A stretch of 64,000 nt of DNA from a virus, in the IMG/VR virus record IMGVR_UViG_3300025806_000014, positions 19,617 through 83,616 of that record; one strand, written 5' to 3'. The position numbers and the translations under genes were made by a program. Numbering within the stretch: position 1 is the first letter of the stretch; each line of letters opens with the position of its first letter. The notes beneath the pieces were generated by a model. That model was not told the origin of the DNA. It worked only from the letters and a program-made list of their open reading frames with translations, and ran no database searches. This document shows, in pieces, positions 6,149-61,591 of this stretch.

Positions 6149-6703
6149 TTAGTCTATGTTAACTACGACATCTAATACATTATATCCAAATGTTATATCA
6201 AAGGTTTGAAATTCTATCGTGTTACTTGAAAAATTTAAATCTAATGCACCTACTTCAGAGATAAACATATCTTTTAATTGCACAGTAACAAATATAGTTC
6301 CATCAGCATCTAACATTTGAACGCCTACACCTTCTGGTAAATATGGATGTTTTCCACTTAACTTATAGTAATAGTCAAACATTTCAATTGCCATCCAATA
6401 ATTTACATAGCCATCAAATGCTTGCATAGTAACTGTCATTGTTTTATCAAATAATTGTTGCTTAGGTATACTTGATCTAAATGCACGTTGATTTCCTGGG
6501 TAATCTACTTGGGTAACTGCATCAAAAGAAGGTCCTGGTAAATTAAGAGATTGAATTCCATAATTCCAATAATCTATAGGTTCTTTGATTATTCCGCCAG
6601 GTATTCTTGTAAGAAAAGGTTTATACTTTTTAGCAATTGGCTCAGGTATAAAATTTCTAGGGAAATCAAATTTAAATTGATTATTTCTTGCGCTTAATAT
6701 CAT
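6149..6703 (-). CDS. Tail tube/terminator-fold protein (gp19/gp3-like)
   Basis: IQSLNLPG, TMTVTM, LDLNFSS..FQTFDITFGY pattern typical of the tube fold; 184 aa. Confidence 0.55.
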   Translation of the reverse strand: MILSARNNQFKFDFPRNFIPEPIAKKYKPFLTRIPGGIIKEPIDYWNYGIQSLNLPGPSFDAVTQVDYPGNQRAFRSSIPKQQLFDKTMTVTMQAFDGYVNYWMAIEMFDYYYKLSGKHPYLPEGVGVQMLDADGTIFVTVQLKDMFISEVGALDLNFSSNTIEFQTFDITFGYNVLDVVVNID

Positions 6704-17955: not shown

Positions 17956-20900
17956 TTACAGGTCTGCTTCCCCAATGAAAGTATTAGCTCCACTTCTTCC
18001 TCCTCCGCCGCCACCTGACCTAGTACTTACGGCAGTTTGTGTTAATGAAGGTCTTAATGCTGATACAACTTTTTCTAAATCACTTAAGCCTTTAGTTACT
18101 GTTGCTTTAGGGAATACATCTATACTTAATCTATCAGATCTATAATTAGCAGAAACTTCAATATCAAATTGAACTACATCTGAATTATTTGGATATAAAT
18201 CAAACCCAATTCTTTTAGTATATGTTAAGTTAACAGTAGAACCTGTTTCATCACCACCAATATTACCTAAACCTGTACCTGATGTAGTTCCAAAATAATC
18301 AGTCATTCTATATTGGAATACCAAAGGAACACTAACAGCATTCTGTTGGCCAAACTGTATTACTTCTCTAGATTGTATAGAATCTCCATCTACTTGAATA
18401 TTCAAATGATTATCAGAAGATATAAACAGATAAGATCCACAAGACTGCCTTCCTAAAGTATATTGGTCAAAACCTTCAAATGAATTTTTAGCATTTCTAG
18501 AATAACCACCAGTAATATAACCAGCAGCAGTAGTATCCCACAGATTTACTAAAGCAGCCGACGATAATGATGGGCTAGGCTGAAGTACTTGTCCAGTATC
18601 AAAAGTAAGCCCTGCGTATGGCGCGCCTGTTGCGGTTGACAAATTATACAAGTCGGTAACATTTTCATTTAAATAAATTCCTTGTTGTTTTCCGTAAGGA
18701 GAATCAGAAGTTAACGGTGAAAACTTAGACTGTCTAAATAATACAGCAGCTGTACCATTACCGGCAACAGTACAATCTATTCCTCCACCTGGAATAATTA
18801 CTGGCAATGTATTAATATCACCAGTTAAAGATTCATAAGCAGCTTTATATGCAGTGTAATTAGTTAAAAACGGGTGTGCAATTGAAACTGATACTAAATT
18901 ATCAGCAGGTGTTTGCGAACCTGGATAAGAAGCTGTTGTAGTAGGAAGCCCAGTATCTAAAAATCCACCACCCCAAATAAATTGTGTTGTCGGATCAGAA
19001 ACTGTAGTTGCAGCTGGTGCATTATAAAAATTTTCTAATGTATCTAAATTAAAAGTATAACCATTTGTTGGTAAATCTGCATTAAGATAACTATAAAAAT
19101 TACCTTCGGCAGATACATCAGCAAATCTACTATAAATAAACTGATTCTTATTTTGTGTAGACTGAAATGGTGGTTGAGAAACCATTTGCCCATACTTTGT
19201 GCTGGCAGTAACATCAGGATTTGTTAAAAGAATTGGTGATAGATCATATTTTCTAATCGTATTATAATCAGCATCATCACCCCTGTATGTAGCCCTATCA
19301 TTTGACTGATTATCTTTACTATTATCTAGCCATGAATATGTTGCTGGTAAAATAACCGAACCATTTATTATACTTCCAGTGTTAGTTGGCGAATATAAGC
19401 CAGGGTTTTCAGATTGTTTTACCATCCTACTTCTATTACCAGTAATTCTAGCTATTAACTGTAAAGCAGTTTGTGATCTATTTGCAATGTTAATAAAATA
19501 AGTCTTTGAAACAATAGCACCTCTAGGATCATCCAATCCATCAACTTCTTGTGAATAGAATCCAGCAAATACTTTTGTAGTTGCATTTCTTCTTAAATTA
19601 AATGTATTACCAGTATCATCAACTAAAGTAGTTACTAGTTCACCTTGTGCACTGCTTAGTATTTCTGAAAACAGATCCAATTGATTTTGCATATCTTGTA
19701 ATTTTGTAAACAAATCAATTGGTGTTTGATTCTCGGATAGAAAACCAGAAGCAATTACTGGAGATGAATGAGCAAAATATGTTTCATTAGCAGTAAAAGA
19801 ACTGCTTAAGTGAGTAGGTAACCCAATAGATTCTAAATTTTCATTTAATGAAACTAGCGCTAAGTCTTCTTGGTTTTGAGTCAATATAGATTCAAGAGCA
19901 CTATCAGAACTTAAATCAGCTGGAAATTCTACTCTTATAGCTGTACTCCATTCACTTTCTAATGGATTAGCTGGCCACCCTGCTTCAGAAATAGATTTAA
20001 CTTGTATTTCTACTTGTTCACCTTTTCTAATTGGAATGTCTAATTGATTAATATTTACTGCATCTGCATTATCATCATTAATAGCAACCCATTCATATAA
20101 ACCAGTTATAGTATTTTTAACCCTAGGTCTTAATACACTATCCACTATTACATAATTAGAAAATGCACCTTGGCTAGTACCAGACCCGTCAGTATAAGTA
20201 AATTGATCTACTGCATTAGCAGCACCGTCCGACGAAAGATACCTGTAACGATATTTAAATTTTATTATATCCTGTACACCTGTTTCAGGAGCTGATTTTT
20301 CTTGTGGCATTGCCCAGAATCCTCTTACTCTATATTTAGGAGTTATACTACTTACAGAATTATCAGATGCAAAAGAATCAATTTCGGTAACTACAGATGA
20401 ATATAATTTAGCCTGTGATGCTCTTTCAGTAATTAAACCTTGTAACGCATTTTTATCTGAATCCCTTTCAACTTCAGTAGTATAATTAGTTGTTTGTATT
20501 TTTGCTCTACTTTGAGAAATAGCAACATCTAATTCACTAAGTGTTGCTTGTATTGTACTCTTTTGATTATTTAAGTCTTTAAGCTGAACAATAGAATCTG
20601 AATTACTAACCTGGCCATTTATTAAAGCCACACTAAAATCCTCAGAAGTTAAAACTGGAGCATTAGGTGTTAAACCTTCCCTACTTGTTGGCATCTTGTC
20701 TTGTGCAAACGATAAAAGATATCTACCAAAATCAACAGCATTCTGTTGATAATAATCTGCTAAAGTCTGCTGAGTACCAGCAGCATTAATAGTTGTTAAA
20801 TTATTTGTATAAAATCCACTACCCGGTGACCAATTAACAGCAGGTATTTTTGAATCTGGATCAATAGGTTTAATAAAGGTTACACATCTTTCATTAAATC

Positions 20901-60117: not shown

Positions 60118-60216
60118 AGTTCCGTTTTTGTTTTAATTATTATAATATAAATATAAACAATTTATTCGGATTCTGAACCATAAATTCACGTTATTTTCAA
60201 AAAGTTATTAACAATT
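60118..60216 (-). promoter_or_regulatory. Repeated upstream element, copy 3
   Basis: TTGTTAATAACTTTTTGAAAATAAC..GAATTTATGGTTCAGA-N15-TTATATTTATATTATAATAA...AAAACGGAA; near-identical to copy 1. Confidence 0.75.
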
Positions 60217-60555
60217 TTTAAACCTTTTGATTAGAGTTTCATCGTTAGGATTATTTTTAAGATCTTTAATTAGCAATTCTGCATATGCAAAGGAAATATT
60301 GTTTGTTTTAACTTCACCTAAGACACCGCATTCATATTCTTTACATTTAGATGGGCGATTTTTATAAATCTTGCATAAATTACAGTTGTCTAACTGTTCA
60401 CAGCCACCTGGGAGTTGCCAGGAAAAACCAAAGTTAGTTTTTTCCTTTACAACATTTTTAAATAAATGATGTTTTGATTCTTCGACATATACACCTGGCC
60501 ATAATGTACCATTACAGCATAAGCCACAATCTAAACATAAATCAGTTGCTTTCAT
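60208..60555 (-). CDS. YkgJ-family Cys-cluster (Fe-S/Zn) protein
   Basis: CLDCGLCC...C..L....CKIY.NRP..C..YEC. Confidence 0.75.
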   Translation of the reverse strand: MKATDLCLDCGLCCNGTLWPGVYVEESKHHLFKNVVKEKTNFGFSWQLPGGCEQLDNCNLCKIYKNRPSKCKEYECGVLGEVKTNNISFAYAELLIKDLKNNPNDETLIKRFKNC

Positions 60556-60737
60556 TTATTATTTTGCTTCTGCTGGTATATTGCTTTTTGTTTTTGCTTT
60601 CTTTTAGTTTCGGAAGGTTTAACAAATTCTTTTCTTGCTCTAATATCTTTAAGGAGTCTAGTCTCTCTACATTTTCTTTTGTACTTTTTTAATACTTTGT
60701 CGATTGATTCTTTTTCTCCTTTTTTGATTATTAGCAT
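60552..60737 (-). CDS. rpsU: Ribosomal protein bS21 (Bacteroidota-type)
   Basis: MLII...ESIDKVLKKYKRK...IRARKEFVKPS..KR....KAIY; exact TATAAATA at 60757-60764 upstream. Confidence 0.9.
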   Translation of the reverse strand: MLIIKKGEKESIDKVLKKYKRKCRETRLLKDIRARKEFVKPSETKRKQKQKAIYQQKQNNK

Positions 60738-60771
60738 ATTTAAGTTTTTGTTTTTATATTTATAAGGTTAA

Positions 60772-60850
60772 GGTCGGGAAGATGAGACTTGAACTCATAT
60801 GTAACCAATTACTCTTTCTACAAGGTATAAGCTTGAGGAGATACATCCCG
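60772..60850 (-). ncRNA. Atypical D-arm-less tRNA-like RNA with Ile(UAU) anticodon loop
   Basis: CGGGATG-TA-TCTCC-TCAAG-CTTATAC-CTTGT-(21 nt)-ATGAG-TTCAAGT-CTCAT-CTTCCCG-A-CC. Confidence 0.7.
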
Positions 60851-60858
60851 ATTCGCGG

Positions 60859-60932
<74 letters not shown>

Positions 60933-60938
60933 AGATCT

Positions 60939-61106
60939 TTATCTAAATATCAAAAGACAGATTGCTATTACTGCTAATCCTATTATTGAAATAAATGCTC
61001 CAATATAAGAAGCTTTCATTTGTTCTTTAGATCTTCCTTGCCTATACTTATTATTTTCTTTCATTCTTTTTAGGTATTCTTTACCGTTGTTTGCAAAATG
61101 ATTCAT
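60939..61106 (-). CDS. Small single-TM protein (not in ORF track)
   Basis: 55 aa MNHFANNGKEYLKRMKENNKYRQGRSKEQMKASYIGAFISIIGLAVIAICLLIFR. Confidence 0.55.
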   Translation of the reverse strand: MNHFANNGKEYLKRMKENNKYRQGRSKEQMKASYIGAFISIIGLAVIAICLLIFR

Positions 61107-61107
61107 A

Positions 61108-61332
61108 TTATCCTAATTCTCCGTTTGACCATGCTTCATAAACATGCTTCATTAAACCATCATCAATATCAGCTTCTTCCCAACCTGAAATTTCATTCCA
61201 TTCAAAGAATTCTGTATTCTTTGGATTTTCAGCAATTCTTACAGATATAATTTCACCGTCTATATCCAATTCATGTTCGTTGGTAACTGCTGACCAAACT
61301 TCTTTACTTTCTAAAACTTTAATCTCAGCCAT
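61108..61332 (-). CDS. Acidic hypothetical protein
   Basis: 74-aa ORF. Confidence 0.55.
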   Translation of the reverse strand: MAEIKVLESKEVWSAVTNEHELDIDGEIISVRIAENPKNTEFFEWNEISGWEEADIDDGLMKHVYEAWSNGELG

Positions 61333-61333
61333 T

Positions 61334-61591
61334 TTAAATTTTTGTTAATCTTTCTTTTTCTATGTTTTGGTCAAAGTAAGAAGGTATTCCTTTTGGTAAT
61401 TCACATGTTAAACCTTCAGGCCTAACTTGTATTTTATTATTTCCACATAATGAAATTATTTCTCCAATGTATTCTTTATCTCTAAATACTGGAAGTACTT
61501 CGCCCTTTCTACAAGTTTTTCCTTCAGGATGAGGTACTGCTGTCATTGGTCTAATCCATTTTACTTTGTCTCCTCTTTTAAATTCTGCCAT
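61334..61591 (-). CDS. Hypothetical protein (SH3/KOW-like FKRGDKV start)
   Basis: 85 aa; TTCAGA-N15-TTATAATTA motif upstream. Confidence 0.55.
   Translation of the reverse strand: MAEFKRGDKVKWIRPMTAVPHPEGKTCRKGEVLPVFRDKEYIGEIISLCGNNKIQVRPEGLTCELPKGIPSYFDQNIEKERLTKI

Follow-up and report, generated by a model that had tools for sequence, protein, structure and literature searches.

The closest described relatives of the gene examined here are canonical isoleucine tRNAs with the anticodon UAU, such as tRNAIle2(UAU) of Mycoplasma mobile (PMC3575796) and the tRNA-Ile(tat) that ARAGORN calls in the tRNA array of Kehishuvirus 'tikkala', which are presumed to read AUA without lysidine. Departures from the cloverleaf have been described elsewhere. 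The tRNA-Ser(AGY) of animal mitochondria (PMC9427863, PMC4013460) lacks the D hairpin and has a short connector between the acceptor and anticodon stems, but these tRNAs are shortened, lose the D-loop/T-loop contacts and need co-evolved partners. An engineered 62-nt D-arm-less 'mini HisT' has been shown to be accepted by the HisRS, EF-Tu and ribosome of E. coli, in a 2024 paper that states that all known bacterial tRNAs are cloverleaves and that natural armless tRNAs exist only in mitochondria (PMC11551756). The allo-tRNAs and other 8/4 or 9/3 tRNAs of bacteria and phages, which often occur in tRNA clusters and among which UAU is a frequent anticodon, keep a cloverleaf with a D arm and differ in their acceptor/T stem lengths and long V arm (Mukai et al., PMC5389517). 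In the red alga Cyanidioschyzon merolae some tRNA genes are circularly permuted, and processing restores a canonical mature tRNA.

The gene described here lies on the minus strand at positions 60772-60850 of a 64,000-nt stretch of viral DNA (the window; IMG/VR record IMGVR_UViG_3300025806_000014, positions 19,617 to 83,616). A sequence-only reading had parsed it as a D-arm-less, apparently rearranged tRNA with a UAU anticodon, and this observation was confirmed, since the strand reads exactly as had been set out: an acceptor stem CGGGATG/CTTCCCG with 6 pairs and one U-U (position 6-67), then TA, TCTCC, an anticodon arm TCAAG-CTTATAC-CTTGT with 4 pairs and a closing U-U, the 21-nt segment AGAAAGAGTAATTGGTTACAT, the T arm, discriminator A and CC. 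Its parts are the following.

60772-60850, minus strand: whole rewired tRNA-Ile(UAU) gene, 77 nt to the discriminator plus encoded CC
60844-60850, minus strand: 5' strand of the acceptor stem (columns 1-7), pairing with 60775-60781
60842-60843, minus strand: U8 A9
60838-60841, minus strand: strand X (TCTC), equivalent to the D-stem 3' strand 22-25, its CTC pairing with GAG at 60812-60814
60820-60836, minus strand: anticodon arm, loop CUUAUAC, anticodon UAU at 60827-60829
60815-60819, minus strand: linker AGAAA (A and G like 44/45, then AAA)
60811-60814, minus strand: strand Y (GAGT), equivalent to the D-stem 5' strand 10-13
60802-60810, minus strand: D-loop-like strand AATTGGTTA (A14, R15, G18 G19, U20, A21)
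60799-60801, minus strand: CAT, whose last base behaves as Y48, pairing with R15 (60809)
60782-60798, minus strand: T arm ATGAG-TTCAAGT-CTCAT
60772-60781, minus strand: 3' strand of the acceptor stem, discriminator A (60774) and CC
60857-60932, minus strand: canonical tRNA-Arg(UCU), 6 nt upstream, a probable co-transcript (ARAGORN and Rfam, 71.7 bits)
60552-60737, minus strand: phage bS21 gene, 34 nt downstream (Pfam PF01165, Ribosomal_S21, E 5.4e-12)

The gene shares with the canonical UAU tRNAs the anticodon in a CU-UAU-A loop with U33 and a purine at 37, discriminator A, a 7/5 acceptor/T branch and a standard T loop. In contrast to them, it has only TCTCC where the D hairpin should lie between positions 9 and 26, the D-stem 5' strand and D loop follow the anticodon arm, and it measures 77 rather than 73 nt to the discriminator. 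The order of segments is 8-9, a strand like 22-25, 26, the anticodon arm, GAAA, a strand like 10-13, a D loop (A14, R15, G18 G19, N20, A21), CA, Y48 and the T arm. Unlike the mitochondrial D-armless type, it is not shortened and the D-loop bases are retained in a new place, in a phage of bacteria; unlike mini HisT, the D arm is relocated rather than deleted; it is 7/5 rather than 8/4 or 9/3; and because its two ends are normal and an internal segment is displaced, no circular permutation can restore the standard order. A literature search found no published description of such a layout, although supplementary files were not consulted and the supplementary figures of irregular tRNA clusters of Mukai et al. 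could hold similar genes.

That standard tRNA finders would miss the gene or call it a pseudogene had been predicted. ARAGORN at default, -ps, -i, -mt and -mtx does not call it, and the Rfam tRNA model RF00005 (family threshold 29 bits) gives no match even at E<=10 on a 351-nt stretch. Only ARAGORN at 80% thresholds (-ps80) calls a tRNA-Ile(tat), drawn as an 86-nt cloverleaf whose acceptor 5' strand comes from the spacer (60851-60857), with a 3-bp D arm GGA/TCT and a long variable arm. The other three tRNAs of the window (UUG, UCU and UAA) are canonical. A blastn search with 3 kb around the locus against cultured phages matched only the canonical tRNAs, whereas the 79-nt element alone matched one record. 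A search for relatives based on bS21 gave 6 loci, of which two (59% identity) have no such element.

Scans with exact patterns found 94 distinct 79-nt versions with no indels, none of which is called by ARAGORN at default. Across these, 93.6% of cells are paired against 75.9% in shuffles, 16 of 21 pairs show double changes, and every slid control gives at most 50.3% paired. All 7 acceptor pairs show double changes, with 96.2% of cells paired, as do 4 of 5 T-stem pairs and the anticodon-stem pairs 17-29, 18-28 and 19-27. Strands X and Y form a 3-bp CTC/GAG helix that encloses the anticodon arm: pair 12-38 is UA in 66 and CG in 28 with 0 unpaired, and both states occur within 5 separate acceptor-stem groups. 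Pair 42-52, which behaves like the R15-Y48 Levitt pair, is AU in 85 and GC in 9 with 0 unpaired; over 174 distinct genes of this layout it is A-T in 151, G-C in 19 and other in 4. Mutual information found no further tertiary pair. RNAalifold predicts the same four helices de novo. U8 and A9 are invariant in 94 of 94, as are A77 and C78, and A14, G18 G19 and the T-loop bases (TTCRA) are invariant as well (among the columns, A41, G45, G46 and T47). The linker GAAA is also invariant, although all members were found with exact or degenerate patterns which force the junction motifs, so that C14, G33 and GAAA lay outside the covariation test. Anticodon loops in the family are CTTATAC in 87, CTTATAT in 3 and CTGATAA in 4. 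The base after the discriminator is C in 907 of 982 canonical tRNAs of the same loci as well. The feature is far beyond chance: a family model built from these sequences (R1) scores the gene at 101.8 bits (E 2.3e-22) and canonical tRNAs at no more than 30.7 bits in a search that covered the window and 99 of 199 loci; the window's own sequence was part of the model.

Two details of the sequence-only reading need correction. The proposed hairpin GTAA-TTGG-TTAC in the segment after the anticodon arm is not supported, since it shows no compensatory change and its A-U pair is unpaired in 34 of 94 members. The element is also not truly D-arm-less, because the CTC/GAG pairing, which the same reading had mentioned as a possibility, is a covarying helix. 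Its main interpretation, that of a functional rearranged phage tRNA class rather than decay, is supported by the very tests it had laid down for itself. Homologs with compensatory changes were sought and were found for every helix. Homologs with other anticodons, also asked for in advance, carry GAU, CAU and five Arg anticodons. An ordinary D-arm tRNA at this locus in close relatives would have counted against it, but all seven relatives of this phage type carry the same rewired gene there. The 79 nt are identical in the window and in three related loci (L001, L002 and L309), while the spacer, the downstream flank and the neighbouring canonical tRNA-Arg differ. Among close relatives the T stem is ATGAG/CTCAT, ATGGG/CCCGT or ATAGG/CCTGT. 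Of the roles that had been suggested, independence from TilS follows from the UAU anticodon alone, whereas resistance to anticodon nucleases and a decoy role were not tested. The host was not assigned, and the presence of L309 in a Cryomorphaceae MAG bin is a weak hint only.

Among the 174 distinct genes of this layout the anticodons are only Ile (TAT 98, GAT 9, CAT 1) or Arg (TCT 35, CCT 20, ACG 5, TCG 5, CCG 1), and a scan with the same junctions for N-A-V anticodons found only one degenerate TAC-loop sequence in 2 loci; a scan of metagenome contigs was not part of the study. Bases of the identity type track the amino acid. The discriminator is A in 107 of 107 Ile genes, and the base after GG is U in 107 of 107 Ile genes and A in 66 of 66 Arg genes, which matches A73 and U20 for bacterial Ile and A20 for Arg (Table 1 of PMC9976931), although equating this base with position 20 is our inference. 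The window's gene also has A35, U36 and A37. In contrast, the E. coli determinants C4-G69, U12-A23, C29-G41 and A38 are absent from it, the corresponding positions being G4-C69, G-C at the 12-23 equivalent, A-U at 29-41 and C38; C4-G69 is present in 70 of 94 members.

The genomic context is that of tRNA genes. Of 259 distinct occurrences, 131 lie within 100 nt of a canonical tRNA, and all 131 are on the same strand as it. In Kehishuvirus 'tikkala', which can be grown on Bacteroides cellulosilyticus, a GAU member (positions 2496-2574 of locus L199) fills an unannotated 90-nt gap in a 23-tRNA array that has a canonical Ile(TAT) but no Ile(GAT). Only 3 of 201 rewired genes share an anticodon with an ARAGORN-called tRNA in the same locus. 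In the 36 loci with 10 or more canonical tRNAs, canonical TCT is present in 16 of 36 overall but in 0 of 7 with a rewired TCT (p about 0.009 by a hypergeometric calculation done by hand). A need for the gene is suggested by codon usage, as ATA accounts for 650 of 1644 Ile codons (27.7 per 1000) in 65 crude ORFs of the 83.6-kb contig, and the three canonical tRNAs read CAA, AGA and UUA, the commonest codons of their families.

Our results suggest that the gene is very probably a working elongator tRNA-Ile for the AUA codon (we would put the probability at about 0.72), which would supply AUA decoding to an AT-rich phage and probably folds into a normal L shape even though its secondary structure is not a cloverleaf. 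In this view the stretch that normally forms the D-stem 5' strand and the D loop (positions 10-21) lies inside the variable region, the D stem is made by the long-range CUC/GAG helix, and the D-loop-like strand runs from that helix straight to Y48 and the T arm. The helices and their covariation, the identity-type bases, the membership of tRNA arrays and the non-redundancy with canonical genes rest on the computations described above, whereas co-transcription with tRNA-Arg, RNase P and 3' processing with CCA completion, charging by the host IleRS, the reading of AUA and the tertiary contacts (U8-A14, R15-Y48, G18G19 with the T loop) are inferred only. Expression, processing and charging are untested, the 3D fold was not modelled and its equivalence to the canonical one is inference, and there is no direct evidence of a processed, CCA-ended or charged RNA. 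Contigs assembled from RNA libraries (four RNA runs) do cover the element (X4, 60626-61400 with no differences; X16, 60697-60847), but they may derive from carried-over DNA, with which no comparison was made, they carry no information on ends, strand or level, and parts without cover mean nothing. Also problematic is that E. coli IleRS charges a UAU tRNA-Ile poorly and that this tRNA misreads AUG on E. coli ribosomes (PMC3575796), so that function depends on the IleRS and ribosome of an unknown host, or on a modification. The U-U in the acceptor stem, the U-U closing the anticodon stem and the absence of some E. coli Ile determinants also count against the reading. When the segments were placed in canonical order in silico, ARAGORN at default called 94 of 94 as tRNA-Ile against 0 of 94 in native order; we give this little weight because between 17 and 121 of 720 segment permutations also pass. 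The acceptance of a tRNA that lacks the D arm entirely by the E. coli machinery (PMC11551756) makes the reading plausible.

One alternative is that the gene is a functional tRNA-Ile without the canonical L-shaped core, which would fold like a D-armless mitochondrial tRNA with the CUC/GAG helix stacked on the anticodon stem as one long continuous helix, the 13-nt strand being a flexible connector rather than a docked D loop. The absence of a D hairpin is consistent with this, but a flexible connector would not be expected to show the invariance of A14, G18 G19 and the T-loop bases, an R15-Y48-type covariation with 0 exceptions in 94 members, or a position 20 that tracks amino-acid identity in 173 of 173 Ile and Arg genes, and we regard it as unlikely. 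About as doubtful is a tRNA mimic that is not used in translation, either a decoy for a host tRNA-targeting nuclease or tRNA-binding factor, or an RNase P/RNase Z processing signal that frees the bS21 mRNA from the tRNA-Arg transcript. The element does sit between tRNA-Arg and bS21 in all relatives of this phage type, two RNA-library contigs from two studies stop at 60847, 3 nt inside its 5' end (weak evidence), and charging is unproven. However, most family members are not next to bS21 but in tRNA arrays or other contexts, the anticodon, discriminator and position 20 are kept in amino-acid-specific form, and 198 of 201 genes replace canonical anticodons rather than duplicating them, whereas a decoy should coexist with the tRNA it protects.

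Decay or a chance tRNA-like sequence could be suspected from the rejection by standard finders and from the single-sequence fold, which is no better than that of shuffles (z -0.70; 46 of 200 shuffles fold at least as well) and whose minimum-free-energy structure is not the consensus structure, a result we consider uninformative. This explanation is already contradicted by the 94 indel-free variants with compensatory changes in all helices, and by the finding that the element is more conserved than the neighbouring canonical tRNA-Arg. The 86-nt cloverleaf drawn at 80% thresholds is equally contradicted: its acceptor stem has 2 mismatches in 7, its spacer varies without compensation among close relatives (CGCGAAT, CGCGACT, CGAGTAT, CACGACT and others) while the 3' strand is constant, and upstream sequences are unrelated across the family whereas columns 1-7 covary with 70-76.

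A more speculative history, which the data do not exclude but which we consider unlikely, is that segment 10-21 was moved into the variable region once in a phage-borne lineage, for example by an internal tandem duplication followed by two deletions, and that the layout then spread between arginine and isoleucine specificities by anticodon shift, UCU and UAU differing by one base and the junction motifs being shared. Bacterial translation would then use natural tRNAs that are not cloverleaves, and the layout would be kept because the altered backbone path protects phage tRNAs from host tRNA-directed defence nucleases or turnover, while the aaRS, EF-Tu and the ribosome still see a normal L shape.

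We conclude that the gene is a real member of a structural variant of tRNA that is new in its strand topology. A widespread, conserved phage tRNA class of this kind would show that the cloverleaf is not the only natural way to build the L-shaped core in a cytosolic system. It would expose a blind spot in annotation of the tRNAscan/ARAGORN/Rfam type, since phage tRNA sets and codon-supply analyses currently miss Ile and Arg genes, for example in the unannotated gap of a cultured crAss-like phage. It would also give a natural scaffold for orthogonal tRNA design and allow direct tests of which backbone connections aaRSs, RNase P, EF-Tu and anticodon nucleases really need.

The sequence-only reading of the minus strand of window 60772-60850 was correct in every segment. 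The element consists of the acceptor strand CGGGATG, TA, TCTCC, the arm TCAAG-CTTATAC-CTTGT, the 21-nt segment AGAAAGAGTAATTGGTTACAT, the T arm ATGAG-TTCAAGT-CTCAT, the acceptor strand CTTCCCG, A and CC. It starts 6 nt after a canonical tRNA-Arg and ends 34 nt before a phage gene for ribosomal protein bS21. The features of the locus are as follows.

60857-60932: canonical tRNA-Arg(TCT)
60772-60850, minus strand: the element
60552-60737, minus strand: 61-codon bS21 gene, matching Pfam Ribosomal_S21 with E 5.4e-12
60208-60555, minus strand: gene following bS21, encoding a CxxCxxCC zinc/iron-chelating domain protein

It had been anticipated that ARAGORN would miss the element or give only a pseudogene call, and at default settings it found only tRNA-Gln(ttg), tRNA-Arg(tct) and tRNA-Leu(taa) in the window. 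The same three were found with Rfam, and a permissive Rfam scan of 60650-61000, with E up to 10, gave no tRNA match on the element. ARAGORN with the options -ps, -i, -mt or -mtx also missed it. At 80% thresholds the program draws an 86-nt tRNA-Ile(tat), but the acceptor stem of that drawing uses the spacer that separates the element from tRNA-Arg. The single sequence does not fold better than shuffled versions of itself (z -0.70).

The window is part of an 83.6-kb contig with 33% G+C and three canonical tRNAs. Its large ORFs match phage helicase, baseplate wedge and DNA ligase families, so it is a large tailed phage, and the contig of one relative is 181 kb. In 65 crudely defined ORFs, ATA makes up 650 of 1644 Ile codons, while AGA, TTA and CAA, which are read by the three canonical phage tRNAs, dominate their families.

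A search with an exact 27-mer and a search with the bS21 protein brought in six IMG/VR contigs of the same phage type, and a genome scan added a contig binned into a Cryomorphaceae MAG. An ordinary tRNA with a D arm at this locus in close relatives had been proposed as grounds for rejecting the class, but all of these contigs carry tRNA-Arg, a 6-8-nt spacer, the element and bS21. The element is invariant among them except in the T stem, which reads ATGAG/CTCAT, ATGGG/CCCGT or ATAGG/CCTGT, and these are compensatory changes. In contrast, the spacer, the downstream flank and the neighbouring tRNA-Arg all differ among these contigs. Two more distant bS21 loci have no such element.

Exact seeds from the D-loop-like strand and from the anticodon arm hit 96 and at least 118 viral contig stretches, respectively. 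Eight distinct sequences among the 16-mer hits looked by eye like chance matches and were dropped. A regular expression collected 94 distinct 79-nt versions (184 occurrences), all of the same length, which were aligned. The existence of homologs with covarying stems had been named in advance as a test of the class. In this alignment our proposed structure has 93.6% of cells paired, against 75.9% in shuffles and at most 50.3% when the structure is slid along the alignment, and 16 of 21 pairs show double changes. All 7 acceptor pairs, 4 of 5 T-stem pairs and 3 anticodon-stem pairs covary. In the helix formed by columns 11-13 and 37-39, the middle pair is U-A in 66 members and C-G in 28, with none unpaired. 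Because shuffles ignore relatedness, independence was checked separately, and both states of that pair were found to occur inside 5 different acceptor-stem groups. RNAalifold predicts the same four helices without guidance. Column 42 (A or G) and column 52 (U or C) form A-U in 85 members and G-C in 9, with no exception. The GTAA/TTAC hairpin that had been proposed for the 21-nt segment, however, has no compensatory change, and one of its pairs is broken in 34 of 94 members. A covariance model built from the alignment (R1) scores family members at 85.4-105.4 bits, whereas canonical tRNAs in the same DNA score at most 30.7 bits, in a search that covered the window and 99 of the 199 loci then collected. 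Low-scoring R1 hits of odd length (51-67 nt) also lie inside tRNA arrays, at L100 11563-11623, L045 6737-6787, L033 624-689, L090 409-474 and L060 3383-3449 (locus numbers are ours), and may be other irregular tRNAs or fragments.

Our reading of the layout is that U8 A9 is followed by UCUC, whose CUC pairs with the GAG that follows the anticodon arm. After GAG-U come A, R, two pyrimidines, GG, U, Y and A, which matches a D loop base for base (A14, R15, G18 G19, N20, A21). Then come C, A, a pyrimidine that covaries with R15 as Y48 does, and the T stem. The order is therefore 8-9, 22-25, 26, the anticodon arm, a 44-45-like AG plus AAA, 10-13, 14-21, CA, 48 and the T arm, and in effect segment 10-21 has been moved into the variable region. 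That the tertiary contacts form is our inference, as are processing, CCA completion (only CC is encoded here), charging and decoding, whereas the invariance of the bases that the contacts need (U8, A14, G18, G19 and T-loop U54 U55 C56 A58) was observed directly in the alignment. When the segments were reordered in silico into the canonical order, ARAGORN at default settings called 94 of 94 members as tRNA-Ile, against 0 of 94 in native order. The control shows that this test is weak, since 17-121 of all 720 permutations of the six inner segments also pass.

Five results argue that the element is a tRNA that is used. One is that the anticodons are restricted, a search for homologs with other anticodons having been proposed beforehand. 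A pattern that excludes A at the middle anticodon base found about 66 further genes of the same layout, all with arginine anticodons. An anticodon-free pattern applied to the genomes of 185,579 species found 23 genes, with only GAU, UAU, CAU, CCU, CCG or UCU. The only isolate genome among these 23 hits is that of Achromobacter anxifer LMG 26857, where a rewired tRNA-Arg(CCG) at 6534-6612 of a 487-kb contig (L298) lies inside a 14-tRNA array that also holds an 86-nt ARAGORN tRNA-Arg(ccg); this may be a prophage or a tRNA island. A 400-kb contig of an Erysipelotrichaceae MAG (L301) has two rewired genes on the minus strand about 900 nt apart, one with GAU and one with CAU (lysidine-type Ile or Met), the latter being the only CAU member seen. 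A pattern for N-A-V anticodons found one degenerate sequence in 2 loci (L313 and L314), with loop CTTACTG (TAC, Val-like), no GG in the D-loop-like strand and an odd T loop, which may be a decayed or diverged member. A stricter parse gives 174 distinct genes, and these are Ile TAT 98, GAT 9 and CAT 1, and Arg TCT 35, CCT 20, ACG 5, TCG 5 and CCG 1.

Identity bases also follow the amino acid. The discriminator is A in 107 of 107 Ile genes, while in Arg genes it is G in 40, A in 19 and U in 7. The base after GG is U in 107 of 107 Ile genes and A in 66 of 66 Arg genes, and the search patterns for the Arg genes did not constrain that region. Table 1 of Giege and Eriani lists A73 and U20 for bacterial Ile, and A20 with A/G73 for bacterial Arg (PMC9976931). 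Several E. coli Ile determinants are nevertheless absent. The genes, moreover, live in tRNA arrays. Of 259 distinct occurrences, 103 lie within 20 nt and 28 within 21-100 nt of an ARAGORN tRNA, and all 131 are on the same strand as that tRNA. They share the C after the discriminator that is found in 907 of 982 distinct canonical phage tRNAs of these loci (L001-L312), of which only 335 encode a full CCA. In one such array of 21 tRNAs that also holds a rewired Ile(UAU) (L308), ARAGORN calls a suppressor-type tRNA with anticodon tta at 2023-2096, which hints at stop-codon recoding in that phage.

The rewired genes replace canonical genes rather than duplicate them, as only 3 of 201 share their anticodon with a canonical gene in the same locus. 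In the 36 loci with 10 or more canonical tRNAs, canonical TCT occurs in 16 and canonical GAT in 18, yet neither occurs in any of the 7 and 4 loci, respectively, where the rewired gene has that anticodon (hypergeometric values, calculated by hand, of 0.009 and 0.05). Finally, a cultured phage has a member of the family. The only match among 50,697 phage records is the crAss-like Kehishuvirus 'tikkala' (OQ198717, host Bacteroides cellulosilyticus), in which a rewired tRNA-Ile(GAU) at about 95577-95655 (within 2490-2580 of our locus L199) lies in an unannotated 90-nt gap between tRNA-Trp and tRNA-Met. The array has 23 ARAGORN-called tRNAs, including a canonical Ile(tat) but no Ile(gat). This phage offers an experimental system.

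Evidence of expression is weak. Contigs from two metatranscriptome libraries of two studies cover the element, one (X4) at 60626-61400 without differences and the other (X16) at 60697-60847. Two RNA contigs, from two libraries of two studies, stop at 60847, 3 nt inside the 5' end of the element, which could mark a processing site or an assembly break at the variable spacer. These are assemblies that may contain DNA, and they break at variable sites such as the spacer. A concern about charging and decoding is that E. coli IleRS charges tRNA-Ile(UAU) poorly, and that this tRNA reads AUG as well on E. coli ribosomes (PMC3575796). The host's enzymes or a modification must therefore cope, and the same applies to the canonical phage tRNA-Ile(UAU) genes found in 7 of the 36 large arrays.

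Compared with known tRNAs, the element would work like a tRNA-Ile(UAU) but lacks the D hairpin that defines the canonical family and falls below the score thresholds of that family. It is not a shortened D-armless mitochondrial type and not an 8/4 or 9/3 allo-tRNA (PMC5389517). Nor is it a circular permutation. Full-text literature searches, which did not extend to supplementary files, found no description of this layout. A 2024 paper states that all known bacterial tRNAs are cloverleaves and that natural armless tRNAs exist only in mitochondria, and it also shows that the E. coli machinery accepts a D-arm-less tRNA (PMC11551756).

Taken together, our results support the main interpretation of the sequence-only reading, namely that of a functional, rearranged phage tRNA class. 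We put the probability that the element is a working tRNA-Ile(UAU) with a canonical-like core at about 0.72. It is possible, although we consider it unlikely, that it works with a different fold, and it is about as doubtful that it is a mimic of a tRNA. What is new is the structure, in which a tRNA carries segment 10-21 in the variable region. We do not know why the core is rewired, and a selective benefit such as escape from tRNA-directed defence is speculation. An internal duplication with two deletions could produce the order. The junction motifs shared by Ile and Arg genes, and the single-base distance between UCU and UAU, suggest one origin of the layout followed by anticodon shift.
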